A stretch of DNA of 62,979 nucleotides, counting the filler. It is 9 parts of 9 records of this genome, joined end to end, with 100 filler letters (N's around TTAATTAATTAA, not from the genome) between each part and the next. Parts side by side here need not be neighbours in the genome. Positions count along the whole stretch, not along the records: positions 13,060 to 19,724 come from SRR31156797_52780; 8 more parts are not named here. One strand, 5' to 3'. The notes beneath the pieces were generated by a model, which was not told the origin of the DNA, searched no databases, and was given only the letters and a program-made list of their open reading frames with translations. The position numbers were made by a program, and so were the translations under genes. Shown in pieces: positions 6,214-55,445 of the stretch. Numbering within the stretch: the first letter of the stretch is position 1; each line of letters starts with the position of its first letter.

Positions 6214-6313
6214 NNNNNNNNNNNNNNNNNNNNNNNNNNNNNNNNNNNNNNNNNNNNTTAATTAATTAANNNNNNNNNNNNNNNNNNNNNNNNNNNNNNN
6301 NNNNNNNNNNNNN
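6214..6313. other. Artificial contig spacer. Identical spacers lie at 12960-13059, 19725-19824, 25629-25728, 30831-30930, 36927-37026, 49796-49895 and 55345-55444
   Basis: 44 N + TTAATTAATTAA (stops in all six frames) + 44 N, repeated eight times; genes are truncated and base composition changes at the junctions. Confidence 0.98.
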
Positions 6314-13059: not shown

Positions 13060-13079
13060 AATAACTGGAAATTATGAAT
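13060..13079 (+). repeat. Left copy of a 20-bp perfect inverted repeat bounding fragment 3
   Basis: AATAACTGGAAATTATGAAT; exact reverse complement at 19705-19724. Confidence 0.95.
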
Positions 13080-16000
13080 AACAGTGTGTTGAACAAATCT
13101 GTCTGGTCTCATTTTAAAAAAGCAGACGGACGATTTGACGGTCTTCTATTCGAAAAGCTCAGTAGCCACCTTTTATCGCGTGTTTATAAAGGAACATGGC
13201 AACAAACCAAACGCTCACATGACCGGGGACATGATTTTGAATTTTTGGGAGATTGCCCCCCCTCTAAAGTCTGGGCCGAATGTAAAATACATGATCGCAA
13301 GCTGCCGTTGACTGTGATCGGTAATACATTGGTTATGGCCCTAGTTGATTGCATAAACAAACTAATATTGATCTCTCATTCAGATCTTAGTCACGACTGC
13401 TCTTTACAGATTGCACATTTCGCTCGTCGAACCGGATGTGAAGTTGATGTTATTACCGGAGCAGGGCTTGACAATATCATCATTCAGTATCCTGAAATAA
13501 TAGAAAGAACCCTTGATTGTTTTGATAAAAGCACCCTGCCTGAAAAATGTATTACCTTACCTCCTGATGTAAAAATAGTCCCGGATTTCCAGCCGGATCT
13601 AGTTGTTCTCAGTGAACAAAATCAGCGCAGAGAGTTTGAATCGAAGGAAGCAGGTAGCCTTCCGGTGCTGCATCCCGGCAATGATTTTGTTGTGAATGTG
13701 CACGTACAAAATCTCATGAACAACCAAAGCGTAACGACTAAGGTTCGGGTAAGAACAAGCAGAGCTTTCGTTTGTTATCGTCATGAAGCGGATGAAAACG
13801 GTTATATTGAACAAGTTGTCGTTTCGGGACCTAATCAATTTTCAACAATCCCACTCCGTTTTCGAGTCGGTGACTATCCTGGAGAGTCGACACTCCCTCA
13901 AATTGAAGTCTTTGACCAACAGGGAAAATTGGTTGAAAGTTCAAAAGTTCAAGAAGTAGAGATCAGTGCGGTCCATTGGATTTCAAATCTGATAGGGAAG
14001 GCCGCAAATGATCTTGAGAAGTTAGTTGAAACATGTCGCGAACCAGATAAAATAAACTGTCTGATTGTTGACGGGCATAGTGGCGTCGGTAAAACACGTT
14101 TTCTTGCTGAAGTTGGTAGTAGATTATGGGATGAAGGGTATGATCTTTTACGTATTGACATGGAGGAGCTGTCAGGGAATGACGATGAAAATGGACTGCT
14201 ACTGAGACATATTTTAGCTCAAATTCATTCGCTTCCTCTTTTGGAGGCACCTGACTTTGAGGGCACCACTCTGCGCTTGGAAACTTTGCATGACAATGAT
14301 GCAAAATGGGTTGAACAGCTTCTGTATGATGGCGTTCGGTTGAAGGAAAAGGCTGATTTTGATCGTTGTGCCAGTATCTTAGCCAAGGGTCTTTCAAGCA
14401 AACATACAGCATTTCTGATTGATAATGCTCAGAATGTCTCCTCGACTGAACAGCAGGTATTTGAGAGACTGGGGAGTCTGGTTCAAGGAAAGGGCTCTGC
14501 GGTACTTCTATTTTCATTTAACGTGGACAAAATATACAGCGGCAGCCCGGGGAGTTCTTTATACGAATACTGCCAACTGCAATGTACTGTAAATACGAAC
14601 CAATGGGGAAAGTTTACACTAAATGATTTCAGACCCGAAGACGTTAGAACATTTTTGAATTCTGCGTTGCGGCCTCGCGATATACGTAAAACTCAATTCA
14701 CGGACGGGTTCCCACTCACCACTGCTGAGATAGAAAAGCACTGCGCACCTCGGCCACTTTATTTGTGGCATATGCTTCTTGAGCTACAAACTTCTGGAAT
14801 TCTTAAGCGAGAAGGATCTGCCTTTGTCCCCCGTAAAGCGAATGAATTTGTAGAAAGTATCAGGCGCCTTCCCGAGTTTACCCGGAACCTGCTTGAATAC
14901 CGATGGAGCTCAACTCTCGCCGAGGCCAAGGCTCCGGAAAGCCTCGAAACAATACGAACCCTTATAGGGTTATTTTTCAACGTCCCTTTTTGGGTGTTAG
15001 ATGGTTTGTCTATTCCCCTCGAACACATCAAGAAACTTGAGGATGCCGGATTCGTCCGCAGGGGTAATAACGATGATCTTTTGCCCAGCCATCAAGAAAT
15101 TTTTAGTTTATTTGAAGAGCAAAGGGTCTCAAAGATTAATGCCGGTAAAATCGCACAGGTTTTAGAGCTGCGTGGACAACAGAACCGGTATCTATATCAA
15201 TATTTTTCTTGCAGAGATATTCTAAACGATGTCGGGGACGAGCTTTTACGGCAATGTCTGTTACATCTTAAACATAGACGCGTTAAATCCGGAAAAGCTC
15301 AGGGAAGTCACTTCTTATATCGGCTTATTGTTATATTGGATGGCGGAATTGCAGCCGTTAATGATAAGGAGCGGTTGCAGTTATTGCACGGAGCCATAGA
15401 AAATCTGGCCCAGATAACGTCCAATAGCAGATTGTCTGATCCTCTTCATATTTGTTTTGAGCATGCCCGCAATTCAATTTCAGATTATAGTGATTCCGGA
15501 CAGGAATTTATACTGTTTGTCCACTTAATTTCAAATATTTGCTTTGCTCGTAATAAATACAACGATCCTTATGCACTGATGAAGGAAATTGTCACCGGTC
15601 CATACCGTTTTTCTTTTCCATCTGAAATAGAGAGAGAGCTTTGTTTCGGATCACTTCTCAATCGTTTAGGTGTTGCCGCAATGTGGGGAGCAAATCCCGA
15701 AGAAGCGTTGATGTTTGGCATGGATTGTCGAAATATTGCCCAAAACCTTATTAAACAGGAAGGATTAACTGCAGAGCACAGAGAAAGGGCTGTGGGGTTG
15801 TGCATTGAAACAGCGATAGATCTAGGTAATATCGGTGATATTATCCCAGGTAGCTGTGACATAAAAGAGATACTGGCCTATTGGCAGGAAGCCGCCGATT
15901 TATATGATACATTGCCGATATTGTCAGAGAAAAGGGATATGCTTGCTCCAATGGTTTCATTCTATAAAGCACGGGTTCTGATGGCCGAAAGCAACTGGGA

Positions 16001-16586
16001 TCAGTCACGAAATTTGCTTAAAAAGGCTATAGGGCTGGCCCGGAAAAACCGAAACGCATATCACGGCATAAGATGCACTATACTGCTTGTGATACTCAGC
16101 ATGCTTGAACAAACTGAGGATAAATCTCATAGTTTATCTTCCGGCATAAATCGTTTGCTTGACTCCGCTCTTGACTGGGCCGTGGCTTCCGGAATTTCAC
16201 ACGCAGAATGGGGAGGACTCCTGATCAGAGCACAAATTGCTTTTATTGGTGGTAATCATCATATAGCCGGAGAAATCGCACTGGATAGTTTAAAAGCTTT
16301 TTGTGCTACCTTGCCGGACGAAGCAATTATAGAACTGAGAGCCCCTTATCTTGCTGGTATCATGGCTATTTTGCAAATAGTTGAAATGGATTATGGCATA
16401 GTTACAACAGACCGTCATGGAGCTGGCTACCGTCAAATTTTTAGCACGCTCACAGCAGGTATTTTTGACCCGCCATGGGTTGAATTTGACTTCTGCGAAA
16501 CAACCTCTTCAATTCTTGAACATCTGCAGTCCATTGTTAAGGATGTTCCATATGTTCAGGGTGGACACCCGCTGCTAAGCCAATAA
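13074..16586 (+). CDS. Mrr-like PD-(D/E)xK nuclease - beta-rich domain - STAND-type NTPase - TPR-like protein
   Basis: FEKL...TKRSHDRGHDF...VWAECK nuclease motif; Walker A GHSGVGKT; Walker B FLIDNAQN; PRPLYL and PSHQEI helical/winged-helix motifs; helical-repeat C-terminus. Confidence 0.8.
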   Translation: MNNSVLNKSVWSHFKKADGRFDGLLFEKLSSHLLSRVYKGTWQQTKRSHDRGHDFEFLGDCPPSKVWAECKIHDRKLPLTVIGNTLVMALVDCINKLILISHSDLSHDCSLQIAHFARRTGCEVDVITGAGLDNIIIQYPEIIERTLDCFDKSTLPEKCITLPPDVKIVPDFQPDLVVLSEQNQRREFESKEAGSLPVLHPGNDFVVNVHVQNLMNNQSVTTKVRVRTSRAFVCYRHEADENGYIEQVVVSGPNQFSTIPLRFRVGDYPGESTLPQIEVFDQQGKLVESSKVQEVEISAVHWISNLIGKAANDLEKLVETCREPDKINCLIVDGHSGVGKTRFLAEVGSRLWDEGYDLLRIDMEELSGNDDENGLLLRHILAQIHSLPLLEAPDFEGTTLRLETLHDNDAKWVEQLLYDGVRLKEKADFDRCASILAKGLSSKHTAFLIDNAQNVSSTEQQVFERLGSLVQGKGSAVLLFSFNVDKIYSGSPGSSLYEYCQLQCTVNTNQWGKFTLNDFRPEDVRTFLNSALRPRDIRKTQFTDGFPLTTAEIEKHCAPRPLYLWHMLLELQTSGILKREGSAFVPRKANEFVESIRRLPEFTRNLLEYRWSSTLAEAKAPESLETIRTLIGLFFNVPFWVLDGLSIPLEHIKKLEDAGFVRRGNNDDLLPSHQEIFSLFEEQRVSKINAGKIAQVLELRGQQNRYLYQYFSCRDILNDVGDELLRQCLLHLKHRRVKSGKAQGSHFLYRLIVILDGGIAAVNDKERLQLLHGAIENLAQITSNSRLSDPLHICFEHARNSISDYSDSGQEFILFVHLISNICFARNKYNDPYALMKEIVTGPYRFSFPSEIERELCFGSLLNRLGVAAMWGANPEEALMFGMDCRNIAQNLIKQEGLTAEHRERAVGLCIETAIDLGNIGDIIPGSCDIKEILAYWQEAADLYDTLPILSEKRDMLAPMVSFYKARVLMAESNWDQSRNLLKKAIGLARKNRNAYHGIRCTILLVILSMLEQTEDKSHSLSSGINRLLDSALDWAVASGISHAEWGGLLIRAQIAFIGGNHHIAGEIALDSLKAFCATLPDEAIIELRAPYLAGIMAILQIVEMDYGIVTTDRHGAGYRQIFSTLTAGIFDPPWVEFDFCETTSSILEHLQSIVKDVPYVQGGHPLLSQ

Positions 16587-16590
16587 GCTG

Positions 16591-18567
16591 TTATTCTCTC
16601 CTTTCCACTTTGAACGGACCGAGAAATAATATATCCGAAAGCCCTTGGGTAAAAACATCAAGGACATCCTCCGCTGTTTCAACTATGGGTTGCCCTCGAC
16701 CATTAAGTGAAGTGTTAAGAACAACCGGAACTCCGGTTATTTTTTGAAATGATTTCAGTAATTTCGCAAAATGAGTATCTTCATCGCTAACAGTCTGTAT
16801 ACGGGAAGTCCCGTCGACATGAGTCACTCCGGGGAGTTGATCTCCTATGACTTTACCTGTGAACAGCATATATGGAGACGGCAGAGGAAGATCCTTAAAC
16901 CATTTGCCTGCTTCACTTTCCAAAACAGCAGGAGCAAAAGGGCGCCATAACTCTCTGTTTTTTGCCAGATTTACTTTCTGCCAAGTCTCAGACTTTCTTG
17001 CATCTGCAAGTAGTGACCTACGGCCCAGAGCCCGTGGACCCACCTCAGATGGACCCTGATACCAAGCTACGAGCTTGCCTTGCGCAATTGCTCTTGCAGC
17101 CTCACCGGAGACATCTGCGACCTGCGTCCATTCAATTAGCCCGGCACGTTTTTTCAGCTCAGACTTCATATCTTTAACAGAAGGACTTGCTGTGCTTAAA
17201 AACGGATGCTGTTCATGTTCTTTTCCTTCAGGCAAGTGTGCGCAGTTTTTGTATTCAGGACGAGGCACATTAAGTAAATGATGGGTTAAATAAAGAGCAG
17301 CCCCAACAGCCAATCCTCCATCATCACAGTTTGGTTCAATGAAAATCTGGTCGAAAGCACTTTCTTGCGCTATGCGTGTATTTGCCGGACAATTCAGAGA
17401 AACACCGCCGCTCAGACAAAGTCCTTCAGCTTCAAGCTCCAATCGTTGGATAATTTTAGACAGACATTCAACAGCAGCAAGTCTGTTCTCTTCAAAAATC
17501 AATTGTGCGCTTGCTGCCAAGTCCGCGTTTACAGGACTTATATATTTTTCAGGTTGCCCCAGTTTTGCAAGGTCTGCGCCATCAGAAACCATTGCGCGTA
17601 ATGCATTAACCAGAAAGCTGTGTCCTGCAGAAGGAAGCCCTCTGCTTTGAAGGTCTATATCATTACCGATGAAACGTTTATGGAAAAATCTGGGGGTCCC
17701 ATATGGAGCCAACCCCATAAGTTTTCCAGGAGTTCCAAGAACACTCAGACGCAGGAATTGTCCTGTCTCTTCATAAAAATAACCCAACGGGGCATAGTGA
17801 GGAGTTAGAGGCAGAATGCTGTTGCCATTTCCCCAAAAAAAACCTCCAACATTCAAAGGATGGGAGCTGTAATGCCCATCCTGAGTGAAAATTGCCGCTT
17901 GAGTGAATGGGCTGCGATAAAAGCTTGAAGCAGCATGGCTCACATGGTGATGAATAAAAGCTCCAGGGACAACCCGCCCTTCAAAGTTGATTTCAAGGGG
18001 CAGATGGAAGCCGTGTTTTCTTAATTGTTCTCCTTCAAGATTTGTATTTTCCGCTAGCGAGTTTAAGCCTTGAGCTGTCGGCCATAGCTGTTCGCCTGGA
18101 AAACTTTGAGGGACACCGAAATAGCAAAGCTCTTCTTTTGATAAATGACTGAATTCTTCAGTGAGAACCTTGTCTACAGGGTGCAAGGTGAATTCTTTCC
18201 CGTCAGTCTTCATCGCGTCAATGTAGTTGGCAGCAAGAGGGATCTCAGGGTCGAACCCGGGAATCCCCTTGGACAATTCAGCTGAAACTTTGGGTAAATA
18301 TTTGCATTTATAGTCGGGCTTAATTTGCATGCCTGGAACCAAAGCACATATTAAATCAGTGCCTTGCGTGCTGGTAATAGCTATGAAGTCTATGTCTGAA
18401 GAGTGCAGGCCTGCATTTTTTAAAGCTATTTTTATGCACTCCGAAGAAATAGCCATGGCATGTTTGTGCCTGACTTGGCGTTCGCGCAGGACATTAGCGG
18501 AAATTTTACCATCCTTAACAACACAAACAGAGCCGTCATGCCCAAAATGGATACCTAAAATATTCAT
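16591..18567 (-). CDS. O-carbamoyltransferase, NodU/CmcH/TobZ family
   Basis: GHDGSVC, HHVSHAASSF, GKLMGLAPYG, SGGVSLNC, EVGPRALGRRS, RELWRPFAP, HVDGTSRIQTV and LNTSLN motifs. Confidence 0.93.
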   Translation of the reverse strand: MNILGIHFGHDGSVCVVKDGKISANVLRERQVRHKHAMAISSECIKIALKNAGLHSSDIDFIAITSTQGTDLICALVPGMQIKPDYKCKYLPKVSAELSKGIPGFDPEIPLAANYIDAMKTDGKEFTLHPVDKVLTEEFSHLSKEELCYFGVPQSFPGEQLWPTAQGLNSLAENTNLEGEQLRKHGFHLPLEINFEGRVVPGAFIHHHVSHAASSFYRSPFTQAAIFTQDGHYSSHPLNVGGFFWGNGNSILPLTPHYAPLGYFYEETGQFLRLSVLGTPGKLMGLAPYGTPRFFHKRFIGNDIDLQSRGLPSAGHSFLVNALRAMVSDGADLAKLGQPEKYISPVNADLAASAQLIFEENRLAAVECLSKIIQRLELEAEGLCLSGGVSLNCPANTRIAQESAFDQIFIEPNCDDGGLAVGAALYLTHHLLNVPRPEYKNCAHLPEGKEHEQHPFLSTASPSVKDMKSELKKRAGLIEWTQVADVSGEAARAIAQGKLVAWYQGPSEVGPRALGRRSLLADARKSETWQKVNLAKNRELWRPFAPAVLESEAGKWFKDLPLPSPYMLFTGKVIGDQLPGVTHVDGTSRIQTVSDEDTHFAKLLKSFQKITGVPVVLNTSLNGRGQPIVETAEDVLDVFTQGLSDILFLGPFKVERRE

Positions 18568-19706
18568 TGTGCTTCCCCCTGACTTCCGGAGTAAAGCCCG
18601 GACATAGAATCAAGAGAAACAACATTGCAATGCCGGTCTATAACAATATCATGCTGGTCATGCCGCTGTTTGATCCAGTATTGGTTCGGCTGAAGCGAGC
18701 TGAGCATATCGACAAAGTAAATGACAGGTAGACTGGATTGAAGGCAGTCGTATCCGAGAACCGAGAACAAGTTGAGCTCCCCGGAGTCACGCGTCTTGGA
18801 TTTTCTGCACGGGTATTGTTGCAGCTTGGTTCGGCGGTCAATTGTCTGCGTGAATTCTCCCGGATCAGCAAGGCTGCTTAGATTTGCCCATACGGCATCT
18901 TTGGGGAAGGATCTATTTATTTTAAAGAAATCAAGCTGGGTGTCCAGCCAGCTTTCCACTCCAGACAACCATCTTTTGCCGTGACGGGAAAAATGATGCG
19001 CAGTCATTTCGGTATATCCCGTTGGAGTATGCACACCGGATGATCGCCCGTTGTGGTATGCCGAAGAACTTGTCAGGACTCCACAGTTGAAACCTGCCTT
19101 TCCGGCTCTAAGGCAAAAATCAACATCTTGAAAAAAATCAATATATGACTCGTCCATTCCCCCGAGGAAATGAAAATCATCTTTGCGAAATGCCAGTACA
19201 GCTGAGCAGACAGCAGGCCAGTAGTCTACGGATTTGTTCTTCGATGACATGTAGTTTTGTAAATCGAGGAATGAACGTCCTAGCCATGGGTGAAAATGGC
19301 CATGTTTACGTAGCCCGATTCCGCAATCGAGAACCAAATCAGTACGCGGATCAAGCAGAGTTGGTCCGACCAGATGTAATTCCGGGTTGTCGGCAAGAGA
19401 TTTAACAAGATCTTCGACACATTCTCTGGTCAGAAAAGAATCGGCATCGCAGAGACAAATGTATGATGTTTGTGCTGCATCAATGCCTGCGTTTATGGCC
19501 TTGGCATAGCCAGCAGGTCCATTGAGATCTATAATCTTAATCTGCCTTGCAATTTCGTTTGGGATAGGCGGATGATCATGAGGCGAATTGCGGACTATAA
19601 TTATAGATGAATCTTCTATGCCGGAGGTCCTCAGCGAATGAACACATGCGGATAGATGGCTTAAGCCATCATAAAACGGAATTACAATTGTGAAATCTAA
19701 AGGCAT
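18564..19706 (-). CDS. GT2-family glycosyltransferase with an extra C-terminal domain
   Basis: IVIPFYD, GYAKAINAG, CDAD (DxD) and QDVDFC motifs; ATGA overlap with the carbamoyltransferase. Confidence 0.88.
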   Translation of the reverse strand: MPLDFTIVIPFYDGLSHLSACVHSLRTSGIEDSSIIIVRNSPHDHPPIPNEIARQIKIIDLNGPAGYAKAINAGIDAAQTSYICLCDADSFLTRECVEDLVKSLADNPELHLVGPTLLDPRTDLVLDCGIGLRKHGHFHPWLGRSFLDLQNYMSSKNKSVDYWPAVCSAVLAFRKDDFHFLGGMDESYIDFFQDVDFCLRAGKAGFNCGVLTSSSAYHNGRSSGVHTPTGYTEMTAHHFSRHGKRWLSGVESWLDTQLDFFKINRSFPKDAVWANLSSLADPGEFTQTIDRRTKLQQYPCRKSKTRDSGELNLFSVLGYDCLQSSLPVIYFVDMLSSLQPNQYWIKQRHDQHDIVIDRHCNVVSLDSMSGLYSGSQGEAQ

Positions 19707-19724
19707 TCATAATTTCCAGTTATT
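19705..19724 (-). repeat. Right copy of the 20-bp inverted repeat bounding fragment 3
   Basis: Reverse complement AATAACTGGAAATTATGAAT is identical to 13060-13079. Confidence 0.95.
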
Positions 19725-24110: not shown

Positions 24111-25628
24111 TTACCCGCCCCGGCCGGGAGGGGTGCCCAGGGGCGCAAGGACCAATGCCGTACGGGTGGGAAGATAGAGGCTCAACCTGTCTTCAGTCGC
24201 CCCTTTCAGCGGTTCCCTGCGGGTGAAGTGGGCCTGGCCCGCAACCAGGCGCCCCTGCCCGCCGAACCGTTTTTCGTCGGTATCCAGCACCATTCCATAC
24301 TTTCCCGGAGGTGCATTGACGAAATAATCGCTGAACGAACGGGCCGGATGGAAATTAAAAATAAAAACAAGCCCTGCCCTCTCAAACGCCAGTATCCTGT
24401 CCGATTCATGGAGAAAAAGCAGGGTCGCCCCCCGGGCGTCGACGATTTCCCGTTTTTTTGCCATATCCACCATGGCCCTGTCAAATTCGGCAAGGCGCGA
24501 AAACATCAGATCCGGGTTGTCCTTCAGGGACCACTGGCGCCGGGCGTAGTGATAGGACCAGTTGTTGGCCGCGCTTGGAAAATCGATCCATTCGGGATGG
24601 CCGAACTCATTGCCCATGAAGTTCAGATACCCGTTTCCGGCCGTGGCAAGGGTGATGAGCCGGATCATCTTGTGAAGGGCCACGGCCCGGACGGTGGTGA
24701 CGGAACCGTTGACCCTTTCCATGCCGTGGTAAATCTTTTCTCCCATGAGATGCATCATCAAGGTCTTGTCCCCCACCAGGGCCTGGTCATGGGATTCGGC
24801 ATAGGAAATGGTCTTTTCCTCCTCCCTCCGGGAATTGAGCTCATGCCACAGGGTCTCCAGGGGCCAAGCCTCGTCCCGGAACTCTTTCAGGAGGCGAATC
24901 CAGAAATCCGGGATGCCCATGGCAAAGCGAAAATCAAATCCGGTTCCTCCCATGGCCTGGGGAGCGGCCATGCCGGGGTAGCCGCTGACATCCTCGGCAA
25001 TGGTCACGCAAGGGGGAAAATATTCGTGGACAAGGCGATTGGCAAGATAAAGATAGGCCAGGGCATCCAGGTCCACCGAATCGCCATAGTAATCGTCATA
25101 ACAGGTAAAGGCCCGATTCAGCCCGTGGTCATGGAACAGCATGCTGGTGACCCCGTCAAACCTGAAGCCGTCCATGTGAAACGCCTCGATCCAGTACCGG
25201 ATATTGGAGAGCAGGAACCGCACAACCATGGGCTTGCCGTAATCAAAGCACCGGGAGTCCCAGAGCCTGTGATGCCCCCGTTCCCCGGAATGGAAAAACT
25301 GGTCCCGGGTGCCGTCGAAACGGCTCAGCCCCTCCACCTCGTTGCCGGCGGCATGGGAGTGAACAAGGTCCATGAAGACCCGGAGCCCGAGGCCATGGGC
25401 CGTATCCACCAGGTGCTTCAGCTCCTCCGGGGTGCCGAAGCGTGATGAGGGAGCGAAAAAATTCGTGACATGGTATCCGAATGAGCCGTAATAGGGGTGT
25501 TCCTGAACCGCCATGAGCTGAATGGCGGTGTAGCCCGCGGCCTTGATCCTGGGAAGCACCCGGGTCTCAAACTCCTTGAAGGTGCCCACCCTCCCCTGTT
25601 CCTGGGCCATGCCCACATGGGCTTCATA
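24111..25628 (-). CDS. glgB: 1,4-alpha-glucan branching enzyme, GH13 (5'-truncated)
   Basis: QEHPYYGSFGYHV, DGFRFDGVTSM, IAEDVSG, YAESHDQ and NFMGNEFGHPEWIDFP motifs. Confidence 0.93.
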   Translation of the reverse strand, partial: YEAHVGMAQEQGRVGTFKEFETRVLPRIKAAGYTAIQLMAVQEHPYYGSFGYHVTNFFAPSSRFGTPEELKHLVDTAHGLGLRVFMDLVHSHAAGNEVEGLSRFDGTRDQFFHSGERGHHRLWDSRCFDYGKPMVVRFLLSNIRYWIEAFHMDGFRFDGVTSMLFHDHGLNRAFTCYDDYYGDSVDLDALAYLYLANRLVHEYFPPCVTIAEDVSGYPGMAAPQAMGGTGFDFRFAMGIPDFWIRLLKEFRDEAWPLETLWHELNSRREEEKTISYAESHDQALVGDKTLMMHLMGEKIYHGMERVNGSVTTVRAVALHKMIRLITLATAGNGYLNFMGNEFGHPEWIDFPSAANNWSYHYARRQWSLKDNPDLMFSRLAEFDRAMVDMAKKREIVDARGATLLFLHESDRILAFERAGLVFIFNFHPARSFSDYFVNAPPGKYGMVLDTDEKRFGGQGRLVAGQAHFTRREPLKGATEDRLSLYLPTRTALVLAPLGTPPGRGG

Positions 25629-25728
25629 NNNNNNNNNNNNNNNNNNNNNNNNNNNNNNNNNNNNNNNNNNNNTTAATTAATTAANNNNNNNNNNNNNNNN
25701 NNNNNNNNNNNNNNNNNNNNNNNNNNNN

Positions 25729-30830: not shown

Positions 30831-30930
30831 NNNNNNNNNNNNNNNNNNNNNNNNNNNNNNNNNNNNNNNNNNNNTTAATTAATTAANNNNNNNNNNNNNN
30901 NNNNNNNNNNNNNNNNNNNNNNNNNNNNNN

Positions 30931-31651
30931 GGATTACACCGTTTGCACCTTCGCTACCATAAAGTACCGAAGCCTTGGCTCCTTTAAGAATTTCAAACGA
31001 CTCAATGTCATCGGGATTGATATCGTTGATACCTGTACCATTGTCCCTGCTGGTTGTGCTATATCCCATCGATGTATTCTCATCGTGAATTGGAATACCA
31101 TCTACAACAATTAAAGGACGAGTTGTTGAGCTCTCATCAAAAGAAACTGCATTACGGATATTAATTTTCATACCCCCAGAAGGACCTGAAGCCGTTGCAG
31201 CAACCTGAACCCCTGCAGCACTACCATATAAAGATTGTAAAGCATTGGTAGGTGCACCACTGGCCAGAATCCTTTCGGTTCCAACCTTTGATACGGCGTA
31301 ACCTAATGCTTTTGCTTCTTTACGAATACCCAAAGCTGTAACTACAACCTCATCAATACCTACTGCATCTGTTTGCAATGTAACATCAATAGAAGAACGT
31401 GAATCAACCAGCTCTTCAATGGTTTTCATACCAACAAATGAGTATTCAATAATAGCGTCAGACGGAACAGTTATGGAATATTTACCATCAAGATCGGTAA
31501 CCGTACCATTGTTAGTTCCCTTTTGAATTACAGAAGCACCTGGAATACCAAGTCCCTCTTCATCGGTAACCGTACCGGTTACCTTTTGCTGAGCGTATGC
31601 ACTGCTTATGAGAAACATACACATGCATAAAATCAGAAAAACCCTTTGCAT
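30931..31651 (-). CDS. SusC/RagA TonB-dependent receptor (3'-truncated)
   Basis: GTVTDLDGKY, DEVVVTALG, PLIVVDG and INPDDIESFEILKGAKASVLYG motifs. Confidence 0.93.
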
Positions 31652-36831: not shown

Positions 36832-37028
36832 AATGCCCCTGAGAGAACCAAGACTTTTCCCCAAAAACAAGAATTTAGCCCATAACACCTTTACATTTTT
36901 CCAAACTTTAAACCTTAAATCCTCATNNNNNNNNNNNNNNNNNNNNNNNNNNNNNNNNNNNNNNNNNNNNTTAATTAATTAANNNNNNNNNNNNNNNNNN
37001 NNNNNNNNNNNNNNNNNNNNNNNNNNAT

Positions 37029-49795: not shown

Positions 49796-49895
49796 NNNNN
49801 NNNNNNNNNNNNNNNNNNNNNNNNNNNNNNNNNNNNNNNTTAATTAATTAANNNNNNNNNNNNNNNNNNNNNNNNNNNNNNNNNNNNNNNNNNNN

Positions 49896-55344: not shown

Positions 55345-55445
55345 NNNNNNNNNNNNNNNNNNNNNNNNNNNNNNNNNNNNNNNNNNNNTTAATTAATTAA
55401 NNNNNNNNNNNNNNNNNNNNNNNNNNNNNNNNNNNNNNNNNNNNG

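Follow-up and report, generated by a model that had tools for sequence, protein, structure and literature searches.

Results

The three genes and their products

The window analysed here, a stretch of 62,979 nt with filler included, is made up of nine contigs of 5.1–12.8 kb each with G+C contents of 38–65%; a script found eight joints between them. One entire contig, positions 13060–19724 (6,665 bp), is filled by three genes, which encode a nuclease-STAND protein, a family 2 glycosyltransferase (GT2) called GT2c here, and an O-carbamoyltransferase. These genes belong to a conserved module that is bounded by short inverted repeats, is linked in its relatives to a tyrosine recombinase, and inverts; both orientations exist. 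That the genes fill one entire contig was missed by the original prediction, in which they were taken for a candidate system coupling a sensor-activated nuclease to chemical marking. Each joint consists of N44, a 12-nt linker with stops in all frames, and N44, and is artificial. Because such joints lie on both sides of the contig (12960–13059 and 19725–19824), the genes beyond 13060–19724 are not true neighbours of the module.

The open reading frames (ORFs) lie where they had been predicted. The nuclease-STAND gene (arm A of the module) occupies 13074–16586 on the plus strand and encodes 1170 aa. Arm B lies on the minus strand and consists of the carbamoyltransferase gene at 16591–18567 (658 aa) and the GT2c gene at 18564–19706 (380 aa). 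The arms are convergent with a stop-to-stop distance of 4 bp, and the ORFs of the glycosyltransferase-carbamoyltransferase pair overlap by 4 nt, both as claimed.

The domain content ascribed earlier to the arm A protein, namely an intact Mrr-like nuclease motif, a beta-rich insert and a STAND-like NTPase in an Avs-like architecture, was borne out. A structure model covering aa 1–330 (mean predicted local distance difference test score, pLDDT, 67.7; mostly 85–92 in the nuclease domain) contains a PD-(D/E)xK nuclease domain with an Avs4/Mrr/MspJI-like fold at aa 1–149 (13074–13520, plus strand). Within it, aa 5–148 match the N-terminal nuclease of Avs4 (8dgf_B, residues 3–174) with a VIA Z of 12.2 and a root-mean-square deviation of 2.9 over 136 aligned residues; the matches to the catalytic domains of AspBHI and MspJI have Z 11.6–11.9, and that to AF1548 has Z 11.4. 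Residues D50, D54, E69 and K71 are invariant in two alignments, of 13 and of 18 diverse relatives. The insert, aa 157–297 (13542–13964), is a macroglobulin (MG)/Ig-like beta-sandwich by predicted fold, with Z of about 10–11.5 to complement C3/C4 MG domains, HAP2 domain 3 and bacterial alpha-2-macroglobulin. The STAND-type P-loop NTPase at aa 313–480 (14010–14513) is recognised by the Pfam families AAA_16 (33.5 bits, cut-off 32.6) and AAA_22 (28.2 bits, cut-off 27), and the five closest relatives show no variation at its Walker A lysine K340 or Walker B D450. The C-terminal helical region (14754–16583), presumed to be the sensor, is conserved along its full length in the family; a TPR_12 match at aa 965–1016 is below threshold (17.2 versus 30.1 bits).

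No helix-turn-helix was found in the STAND protein with Pfam, and no SRA-like or other modified-base reader domain was recognised in it, although the catalytic fold matches the Mrr/MspJI type. A profile of the close-relative alignment (five STAND proteins) matched no solved chain among PDB sequences. PADLOC returned 0 families for the 1170-aa protein, only P-loop-level matches (E 8e-5 or weaker, to unrelated candidate systems) for nine diverse STAND relatives, and no models for the GT2c and recombinase proteins of the cassette. No PADLOC model matched any part of the cassette, in line with the earlier remark of knowing no named system of this composition. A distant relative, P0009 (1354 aa), carries a CHAT protease, an Mrr_cat nuclease and AAA_16 (Pfam; PADLOC chat match) and shows effector swapping on the same NTPase scaffold. 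In an Allosphingosinicella metagenome-assembled genome (MAG), the STAND gene is in two ORF pieces, with the nuclease part and the remainder in different frames (L007:7944–8072, on a contig shared with L043); it seems to be frameshifted near its 5' end.

GT2c, the core gene of arm B, encodes a predicted soluble GT-A glycosyltransferase (Glycos_transf_2, PF00535, E 7e-16). In its DxD site D87 is nearly invariant and D89 is invariant. The GT2c model (pLDDT 88.9) is without a membrane segment, and its nearest structures by Foldseek (E ~1e-11) are ppGalNAcT2, one of the polypeptide GalNAc-transferases, GlfT2 and the chondroitin polymerase K4CP; AvpGT, a nucleoside-glycosylating enzyme, is a further near structure. 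The family-specific C-terminal alpha/beta domain (aa ~265–370) has no sequence relative among solved structures and no usable ESM Atlas match, and the C-terminal motif pointed out in the original prediction is conserved throughout the GT2c subfamily. The carbamoyltransferase is of the TobZ/NovN/NodU family, with a Kae1-like N-terminal domain (Carbam_trans_N, PF02543, E 3e-36) and a YrdC-like C-terminal domain (Carbam_trans_C, PF16861, E 1e-53). It falls short of the NCBIfam NodU equivalog (148 bits versus a cut-off of 1000). Its nearest solved relatives are the secondary-metabolite O-carbamoyltransferases NovN, TobZ and GdmN (E 7e-55 to 4e-49); the alternative raised earlier, that the transferases group with O-antigen or secondary-metabolite enzymes, is to that extent partly borne out.

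Conserved pairing of the nuclease-STAND and GT2c genes

Close relatives of the STAND protein number only four, at 42–55% identity, among 5.8 billion clustered proteins. The four best carbamoyltransferase matches are 56–64% identical (the next, outside the cassette clade, 43%), and their longest-contig sizes are the same as those of the four STAND relatives (9,586, 919,610, 7,592 and 7,582 nt). The three best GT2 matches, at 52–57% identity (the next at 25%), share three of those sizes; no listed GT2 homologue has the 919,610-nt size. Co-location of the genes in these four closest homologues (P0004–P0007) is read from equal longest-contig sizes only. The contigs of 7,582 and 7,592 nt would leave room for a recombinase gene.

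A profile of the five close STAND proteins retrieved 381 proteins at E ≤ 1e-3, 318 at E ≤ 1e-10 and 133 at E ≤ 1e-30 from 1.84 billion cluster representatives; most of the 381 are 1,100–1,160 aa long and aligned over their full length. The close-relative alignment gave only a weak P-loop match against genome contigs and nothing against metagenome contigs, and scans with distant STAND members gave six genome loci (L002–L007) and 12 metagenome loci (L008–L019). In every uncut locus, a GT2 of about 370 aa is encoded convergently just past the STAND gene. These proteins are orthologues of the window enzyme, with the same C-terminal domain and motif.

The linkage was also examined from the GT2 side. 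A reverse scan of genomes with the GT2 alignment gave 80 loci, and custom profiles placed a STAND gene next to 39 of them. The 41 loci without STAND comprise 40 labelled Paenibacillaceae (one as Priestia) and the Eubacteriales MAG L099. In a quick GT2c tree of 89 rows, in which the window row sits on a long branch, the STAND-less genes form a single clade (SH-aLRT 100), and outside that clade 48 of 48 genes are STAND-linked. STAND and GT2c identities co-vary over 46 loci (Mantel r 0.93, 0 of 999 permutations). The two genes are always convergent, in 49 of 49 non-redundant loci from at least seven phyla, including Bacillota, Bacteroidota, Pseudomonadota and Acidobacteriota. Shared contig sizes, linkage and co-variation uphold the proposal that the three genes belong to one conserved module. 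The GT2c tree departs from taxonomy, consistent with horizontal transfer. The genomes behind L021 (Azospirillum lipoferum), L023 (Poritiphilus flavus), L034 (Undibacterium hunanense) and L036 (Lachnoclostridium sp.) are those of cultured isolates that carry the cassette.

In the sole locus of the STAND-less sister clade that was examined (L050:7995–14223), the genes after GT2c encode a class-III aminotransferase, a zinc dehydrogenase, an MFS transporter, a DUF1349 protein and a HAD hydrolase. Such a set resembles a small pathway for an aminosugar or cyclitol glycoside and gives a hint that the acceptor of the GT2c paralogue is a small molecule.

Inverted repeats and inversion of the module

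The first and last 20 nt of the contig are perfect reverse complements (two matches in the window versus 0.00 expected from shuffles), a feature that the original prediction missed. The left arm of the repeat, at 13060–13079, includes the STAND start codon. The right arm, at 19705–19724, has the GT2c start codon at its inner edge and reaches 2–3 nt into the gene, and the contig stops exactly at its end; both translation starts are thus covered by the repeat. A perfect inverted repeat of at least 14 nt brackets the module in 43 of 49 loci, which is 43 of the 44 with both ends present. Five of the six remaining loci are cut at one side by a contig end; L090 has both flanks and a 12-nt repeat only. 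A composite transposon or a segment flanked by insertion sequences was considered and rejected, as the repeat is only 16–29 nt long where both flanks are present, and the flanks differ.

By inspection of the sequences, the repeat arms have a common core of about 15–17 nt, in which two short reverse-complementary half-sites surround an asymmetric, mostly purine-rich spacer. This core is common from Bacillota to Acidobacteriota, and its layout is that of a putative tyrosine-recombinase core site. Translation of the STAND gene, and of whichever gene comes first in arm B, starts 0–10 nt past the core, with core and start codon overlapping in several loci.

Comparison of loci demonstrates that the segment inverts and that both orientations exist. 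Two metagenomes supply L015 and L017, whose sequences agree at 98.8% over 4,556 nt. They share a 537-nt flank (98.5% identical, in reverse complement) that is found next to the STAND start of L015 but next to the GT2c start of L017; on its other side L017 has a different flank. At its far end L015 re-enters the identical flank, and L006 (121 nt), L019 (55 nt) and others likewise end in long terminal inverted duplications. A repeat arm coincides with a contig end in 14 of the 43 loci, including the isolate assembly L036; such ends are what an assembler would produce on meeting both junctions in the reads.

Sequencing depth gave the same picture for the window. Run X1 contains all sampled window words and may be the source of the window; it holds a Logan contig of exactly 6,665 nt that is identical to the module and has a depth of 239. 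Four 40-nt unitigs of this run lie over the module ends. Two, of depths 95 and 142.5, cross at the left repeat arm (the STAND end), and two, of depths 140 and 98.5, cross at the right arm (the GT2c end). Their length is that calculated for a junction-specific unitig (10 + 20 + 10 = 40 nt) from the 20-nt repeat and a Logan k that we take to be 31. The depths pair crosswise, 142.5 with 140 and 95 with 98.5, and sum to the module depth, which indicates two orientations in a ratio of about 59:41. Runs X2, X3 and X5 contain only fragments of relatives, at low depth.

Recombinase and flanking genes

An orthologous tyrosine recombinase (Phage_integrase with a SAM-like N-terminal domain) adjoins the module in 25 loci. 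Six of these recombinases, when aligned, are 30–39% identical to one another, and all keep the catalytic R, K, HxxR, H and Y. Eighteen of the 25 point into the module and end -67 to +101 nt from the repeat, often with the stop codon inside the outer half-site; of these, 13 read into arm B and five into the STAND gene. In two more loci the recombinase points inward from 568 and 1,082 nt away. Between close pairs of loci the recombinase is found on opposite arms, as in L033/L037 (modules 96% identical) and L022/L026 (81%). On the far side, away from the recombinase, no relation is seen between the genes of different loci; what is conserved as a unit is therefore the recombinase, one site, both arms and the other site.

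The neighbours of the cassette include a TOTE AEP primase-helicase, a DUF3375 protein, an AbiEii-like AAA_21 ATPase and two AAA_35 STAND proteins, one with WD40 repeats (L013:1318–3771, L089:12958–14436, L023:5575–7092 and L011:8555–13125), as well as the conjugation gene TrbI. The DUF3375 protein is presumably the Wadjet component JetA. At L033, choline-binding-repeat fragments of about 193 aa with the same layout lie on both flanks of the recombinase-plus-cassette unit (L033:6197–6778 and L033:12753–13337), an arrangement suggestive of insertion of the element into a gene for a cell-wall-binding protein, or of a duplication of that gene by it.

Variable genes of arm B

The carbamoyltransferase had been put forward as one of the three genes of the module. 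Judging from the gene content of the loci, it is a variable accessory rather than a core part. It accompanies GT2c in the clade of the window and in L018 and is elsewhere replaced by an APH-type kinase (L004, L005, L006, L011, L012, L028 and L029), by further GT2s (L002, L010, L019, L032, L042, L054, L077, L085, L089 and L091), by ROK (L077, L085 and L091), SIS (L060) or DegT aminotransferase (L098) genes, or by ORFs of no assigned family (L009, L013 and L086). In at least 17 loci, arm B is GT2c alone. One arm B ORF, in L002, has a weak, sub-threshold membrane-domain match. In L032 the arm opens, immediately past the recombination site, with a gene for a 258-aa protein that has a CBASS/Pycsar-type TIR effector domain (L032:6258–7034; Pfam E 1e-22, PADLOC TIR effector E 4e-27). 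No flippase or polymerase was found in any arm B examined, and no hydroxymethylase, thymidylate-synthase homologue or TET-like gene was found among the genes inside the examined modules.

Other contigs of the window

The remaining joints of the window lie at 6214–6313, 25629–25728, 30831–30930, 36927–37026, 49796–49895 and 55345–55444. Because they are artificial, any gene-neighbourhood finding that crosses a joint needs re-checking, and the spread in G+C suggests a mixed bin. A cNMP-binding protein, a sigma-54 activator and a FadL-like porin were rejected as gene context of the module, since they sit on other contigs behind linkers. On contig 2 (6572–12940) a run of signalling genes encodes a Roadblock/LC7 protein, a response regulator with DUF4388 and Roadblock/LC7, two unassigned ORFs, the sigma-54 activator and the cNMP-binding protein; it looks like an MglB-like set for the control of polarity or motility. 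Several genes are truncated at contig ends, with only the plug of a TonB receptor at 30875–31651 and an amylase fragment at 24111–25616. A full-length transposase of the Transposase_29 family lies at 1052–2722 (E 3e-171).

Discussion

Our preferred reading of the module is a phase-variable cassette with two alternating states, an Avs4-like nuclease-STAND sensor in one and a cytoplasmic glycosylation pathway in the other, as bet-hedging between two ways of dealing with phages or other invaders. We place the probability of this reading at roughly 0.55. The 6.6-kb contig would be the invertible part of a small mobile cassette, in which two convergent arms lie between two inverted copies of a short dyad-symmetric site, and the segment would be flipped by a tyrosine recombinase encoded just outside, as seen in relatives and not in the window. 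The 3' ends of the arms abut, with 4 bp between them in the window and an overlap or a distance within about 20 nt in other loci. With gene starts immediately past the site and abutting 3' ends, transcription must come from outside; a start codon 0–10 nt behind the site leaves room for a ribosome-binding stretch only, and neither arm can therefore hold its own promoter. The likely point of entry would be the recombinase gene, the only conserved outside element, which would read into the adjacent arm. Since the convergent 3' ends abut or overlap, reading one arm would also produce antisense RNA of the other.

That both start codons directly follow the recombination site favours alternate rather than joint expression. 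A cell would then make either the sensor-nuclease or the glycosylation pathway, and the population would hold both states. In the first state, an intracellular pattern-recognition nuclease would be made. In the second, a lineage-specific sugar, tailored by the variable accessory enzyme, would be put on a broadly conserved cytoplasmic acceptor. A universal cytoplasmic acceptor is favoured because the envelopes of the hosts are unrelated and arm B is often GT2c alone. The choice of acceptor is conjecture at this stage, as is the role in defence. The Avs4-like architecture, the invariant nuclease residues, the horizontal spread and the neighbouring genes together suggest a role in conflict with phages or other mobile DNA, and the TIR protein in arm B of L032 also points to such a role.

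Several observations weigh against the two-state reading. We infer the mutually exclusive expression of the arms from the anatomy of the locus alone. The recombinase is directed away from the module in five loci, and no recombinase for the cassette of the window was matched in the other eight contigs. The nearest far-side ORF of at least 90 aa points into the module in 13 of the 18 loci with a listed ORF (19 were examined), in some within 8–75 nt, and the distal arm could therefore also be read through. The junction unitigs of run X1 are known by depth only, and the same depths would arise if two strains carried an identical module between different flanks. The STAND-less sister clade of GT2c is without repeats or recombinase; because it stands without them and without STAND, the enzyme family is not defence-specific in itself. 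Finally, a scan of viral contigs and a tblastn search of the 1170-aa protein against plasmids and phages gave no relative at that sensitivity.

One alternative, which we consider unlikely, is that the cassette has no part in immunity and is a phase-variable switch of surface or physiology. GT2c would decorate an envelope glycan or glycoprotein, the STAND protein would be an ATP-dependent regulator similar to MalT or AfsR, and the nuclease fold would merely bind DNA. Phase-variable glycosyltransferases and invertible switches of surface structures are classic, and regulators that combine STAND and TPR exist. The best structural matches of GT2c, polypeptide GalNAc-transferases and polysaccharide synthases, are what such a switch would call for, and the accessories (ROK, SIS, DegT, kinases and further GT2s) resemble enzymes of sugar activation and glycan elaboration. 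However, the catalytic D, D, E and K do not vary within the family, which would be unexpected in a module that merely binds DNA, and no helix-turn-helix was found in the STAND protein with Pfam. The cassette also crosses phyla with unrelated envelopes, and its acceptor should therefore be universal. An envelope function is further disfavoured by the absence of a membrane segment from the GT2c model, of all but one weak, sub-threshold membrane match from the accessory ORFs, and of any flippase or polymerase from the arms examined.

It is less probable still that the arms form a co-acting modification-restriction pair, a reading close to the original prediction, which couples the nuclease to the transferases. 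Both arms would be on; the GT2c arm would mark self DNA, another polymer or a nucleotide, the nuclease-STAND protein would spare or need the mark, and inversion would only swap outside promoters or tune the ratio. Convergent R and M genes are indeed common in restriction-modification systems. The nuclease fold resembles the modification-dependent enzymes AspBHI and MspJI (Z 11.6–11.9), STAND and GT2c co-diverge strictly, and the far-side genes are often directed inward. Phage GT-A enzymes are described as glycosylating 5-hydroxymethylcytosine (5hmC) in DNA in one report (10.1101/2023.12.21.572611), and a TobZ-family enzyme as carbamoylating 5hmC in DNA and RNA in another (PMC8670742). Against this, the nuclease fold is equally similar to Avs4, which is not modification-dependent, and abutting convergent 3' ends without a terminator disfavour joint expression. 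With unrelated far-side flanks, a dependable second promoter would lie outside the conserved unit. DNA marking of the phage kind lacks its precondition, because it needs a hydroxymethylase and none was found in any cassette examined; no thymidylate-synthase homologue or TET-like gene that could help to make an acceptor hydroxyl on DNA was found in the examined modules either, whereas in phage systems, according to the second report, the carbamoyltransferase co-occurs with a thymidylate-synthase homologue (PMC8670742). The nuclease and transferases are therefore not supported as one jointly acting pathway; they are convergent arms of an invertible segment, each starting directly behind a recombination site.

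A bolder version, 'mark or kill', keeps the alternation and makes the arms antagonists that are never on together. Arm B would tag nucleic acid or another universal polymer with a tailored sugar particular to the lineage, carbamoylated in the window and phosphorylated or extended in other loci, and the Mrr/MspJI-like nuclease-STAND protein of arm A would recognise such marks on foreign or sibling molecules. We hold this to be quite improbable. If it were true, flipping would split a clonal population into two incompatible epigenetic or immune types, with phages or plasmids from one destroyed in the other, and the rapid turnover of tailoring enzymes would be an arms race over the mark. Population-level immunity would then have a new logic, and a cellular GT2 would possibly be seen, for the first time, to attach a sugar to bacterial DNA or RNA. 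The weakest alternative, that nothing inverts and that the repeat and double junctions are assembly effects or reflect two strains or copies with an identical module elsewhere, draws on the X1 unitigs being known by depth only and on a sample that is not obviously clonal (38–65% G+C among the window contigs), but is barely credible given a repeat whose position is conserved among 43 loci that were assembled independently and with independent assemblers, one flank borne at opposite ends by L015 and L017, the same flank re-entered at both ends of L015, L006, L019 and others, the crosswise match of the X1 depths, and a dedicated recombinase with an intact catalytic set at the site.

The two-state cassette has counterparts among known switches. 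Invertible switches are known for surface antigens, promoters and the specificity subunits of restriction systems. The G segment of phage Mu and the C segment of P1, inverted by Gin and Cin, hold convergent alternative gene sets within short inverted repeats, and only the set that faces the promoter is expressed; the invertases are serine enzymes, a constant 5' coding part is shared, and the tail-fibre genes that alternate are homologous. The cassette resembles these segments in its two convergent alternative arms bounded by repeats and differs in its tyrosine recombinase and its unrelated arms. A likeness in the position of the site is offered by Mycoplasma's vpma, vsp and vsa loci. In the report on them, the sites lie in 5' untranslated regions before start codons, a unique promoter lies outside, an adjacent Xer-like tyrosine recombinase is encoded, and inversion puts a silent gene behind the promoter (PMC2268961). 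The cassette shares the site just before the starts and, in relatives, the adjacent tyrosine recombinase, and it would share the delivery of an alternative gene to outside transcription. In Mycoplasma the alternatives are surface lipoproteins, paralogues within a single family and genus, whereas the cassette holds two unrelated enzymatic programmes in at least seven phyla and its recombinase gene itself appears to supply the incoming transcription.

The contents of the arms have separate counterparts. Like Avs4 of the AVAST systems (8dgf), the arm A protein carries an Mrr-like PD-(D/E)xK nuclease, a STAND P-loop NTPase and a long helical C-terminus on one polypeptide. Unlike Avs4, it is without a PADLOC Avs match, has an extra macroglobulin-like beta-sandwich between nuclease and NTPase, and is always paired with GT2c inside an invertible segment. 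The carbamoyltransferase has both Pfam domains of TobZ, NovN and GdmN and differs from them in not belonging to a recognisable antibiotic cluster. In phage DNA hypermodification, the GT-A DNA glycosyltransferases and the 5hmC carbamoyltransferase are of the same enzyme classes and follow the same logic of lineage-specific decoration (10.1101/2023.12.21.572611; PMC8670742). The cassette differs from those systems in its lack of a hydroxymethyl-forming enzyme, in its cellular context, and in the replacement of the carbamoyltransferase by kinases, ROK, SIS or DegT. No description of the cassette was found in the open-access literature searched, including passages of a systematic survey of programmed inversions (PMC9881135). 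Mechanisms of this kind are already known; within the reach of the search, the novelty lies in the cargo, the pairing and the breadth.

What sets the two-state cassette apart is that a whole Avs-like immune sensor would be one alternative and a glycosylation pathway the other. The arrangement is conserved, together with its recombination site, in seven phyla or more and across 318 clusters of sequences (E ≤ 1e-10). The Paenibacillaceae sister clade may be the best route to the chemistry of GT2c. If the two-state reading is true, a widespread phase-variable member of the STAND immune proteins has been overlooked by current defence finders, and its inversion would explain the broken metagenome assemblies at such loci. 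It would also point to a cytoplasmic glycosylation that cells either use in place of a nuclease sensor or keep apart from it as incompatible.

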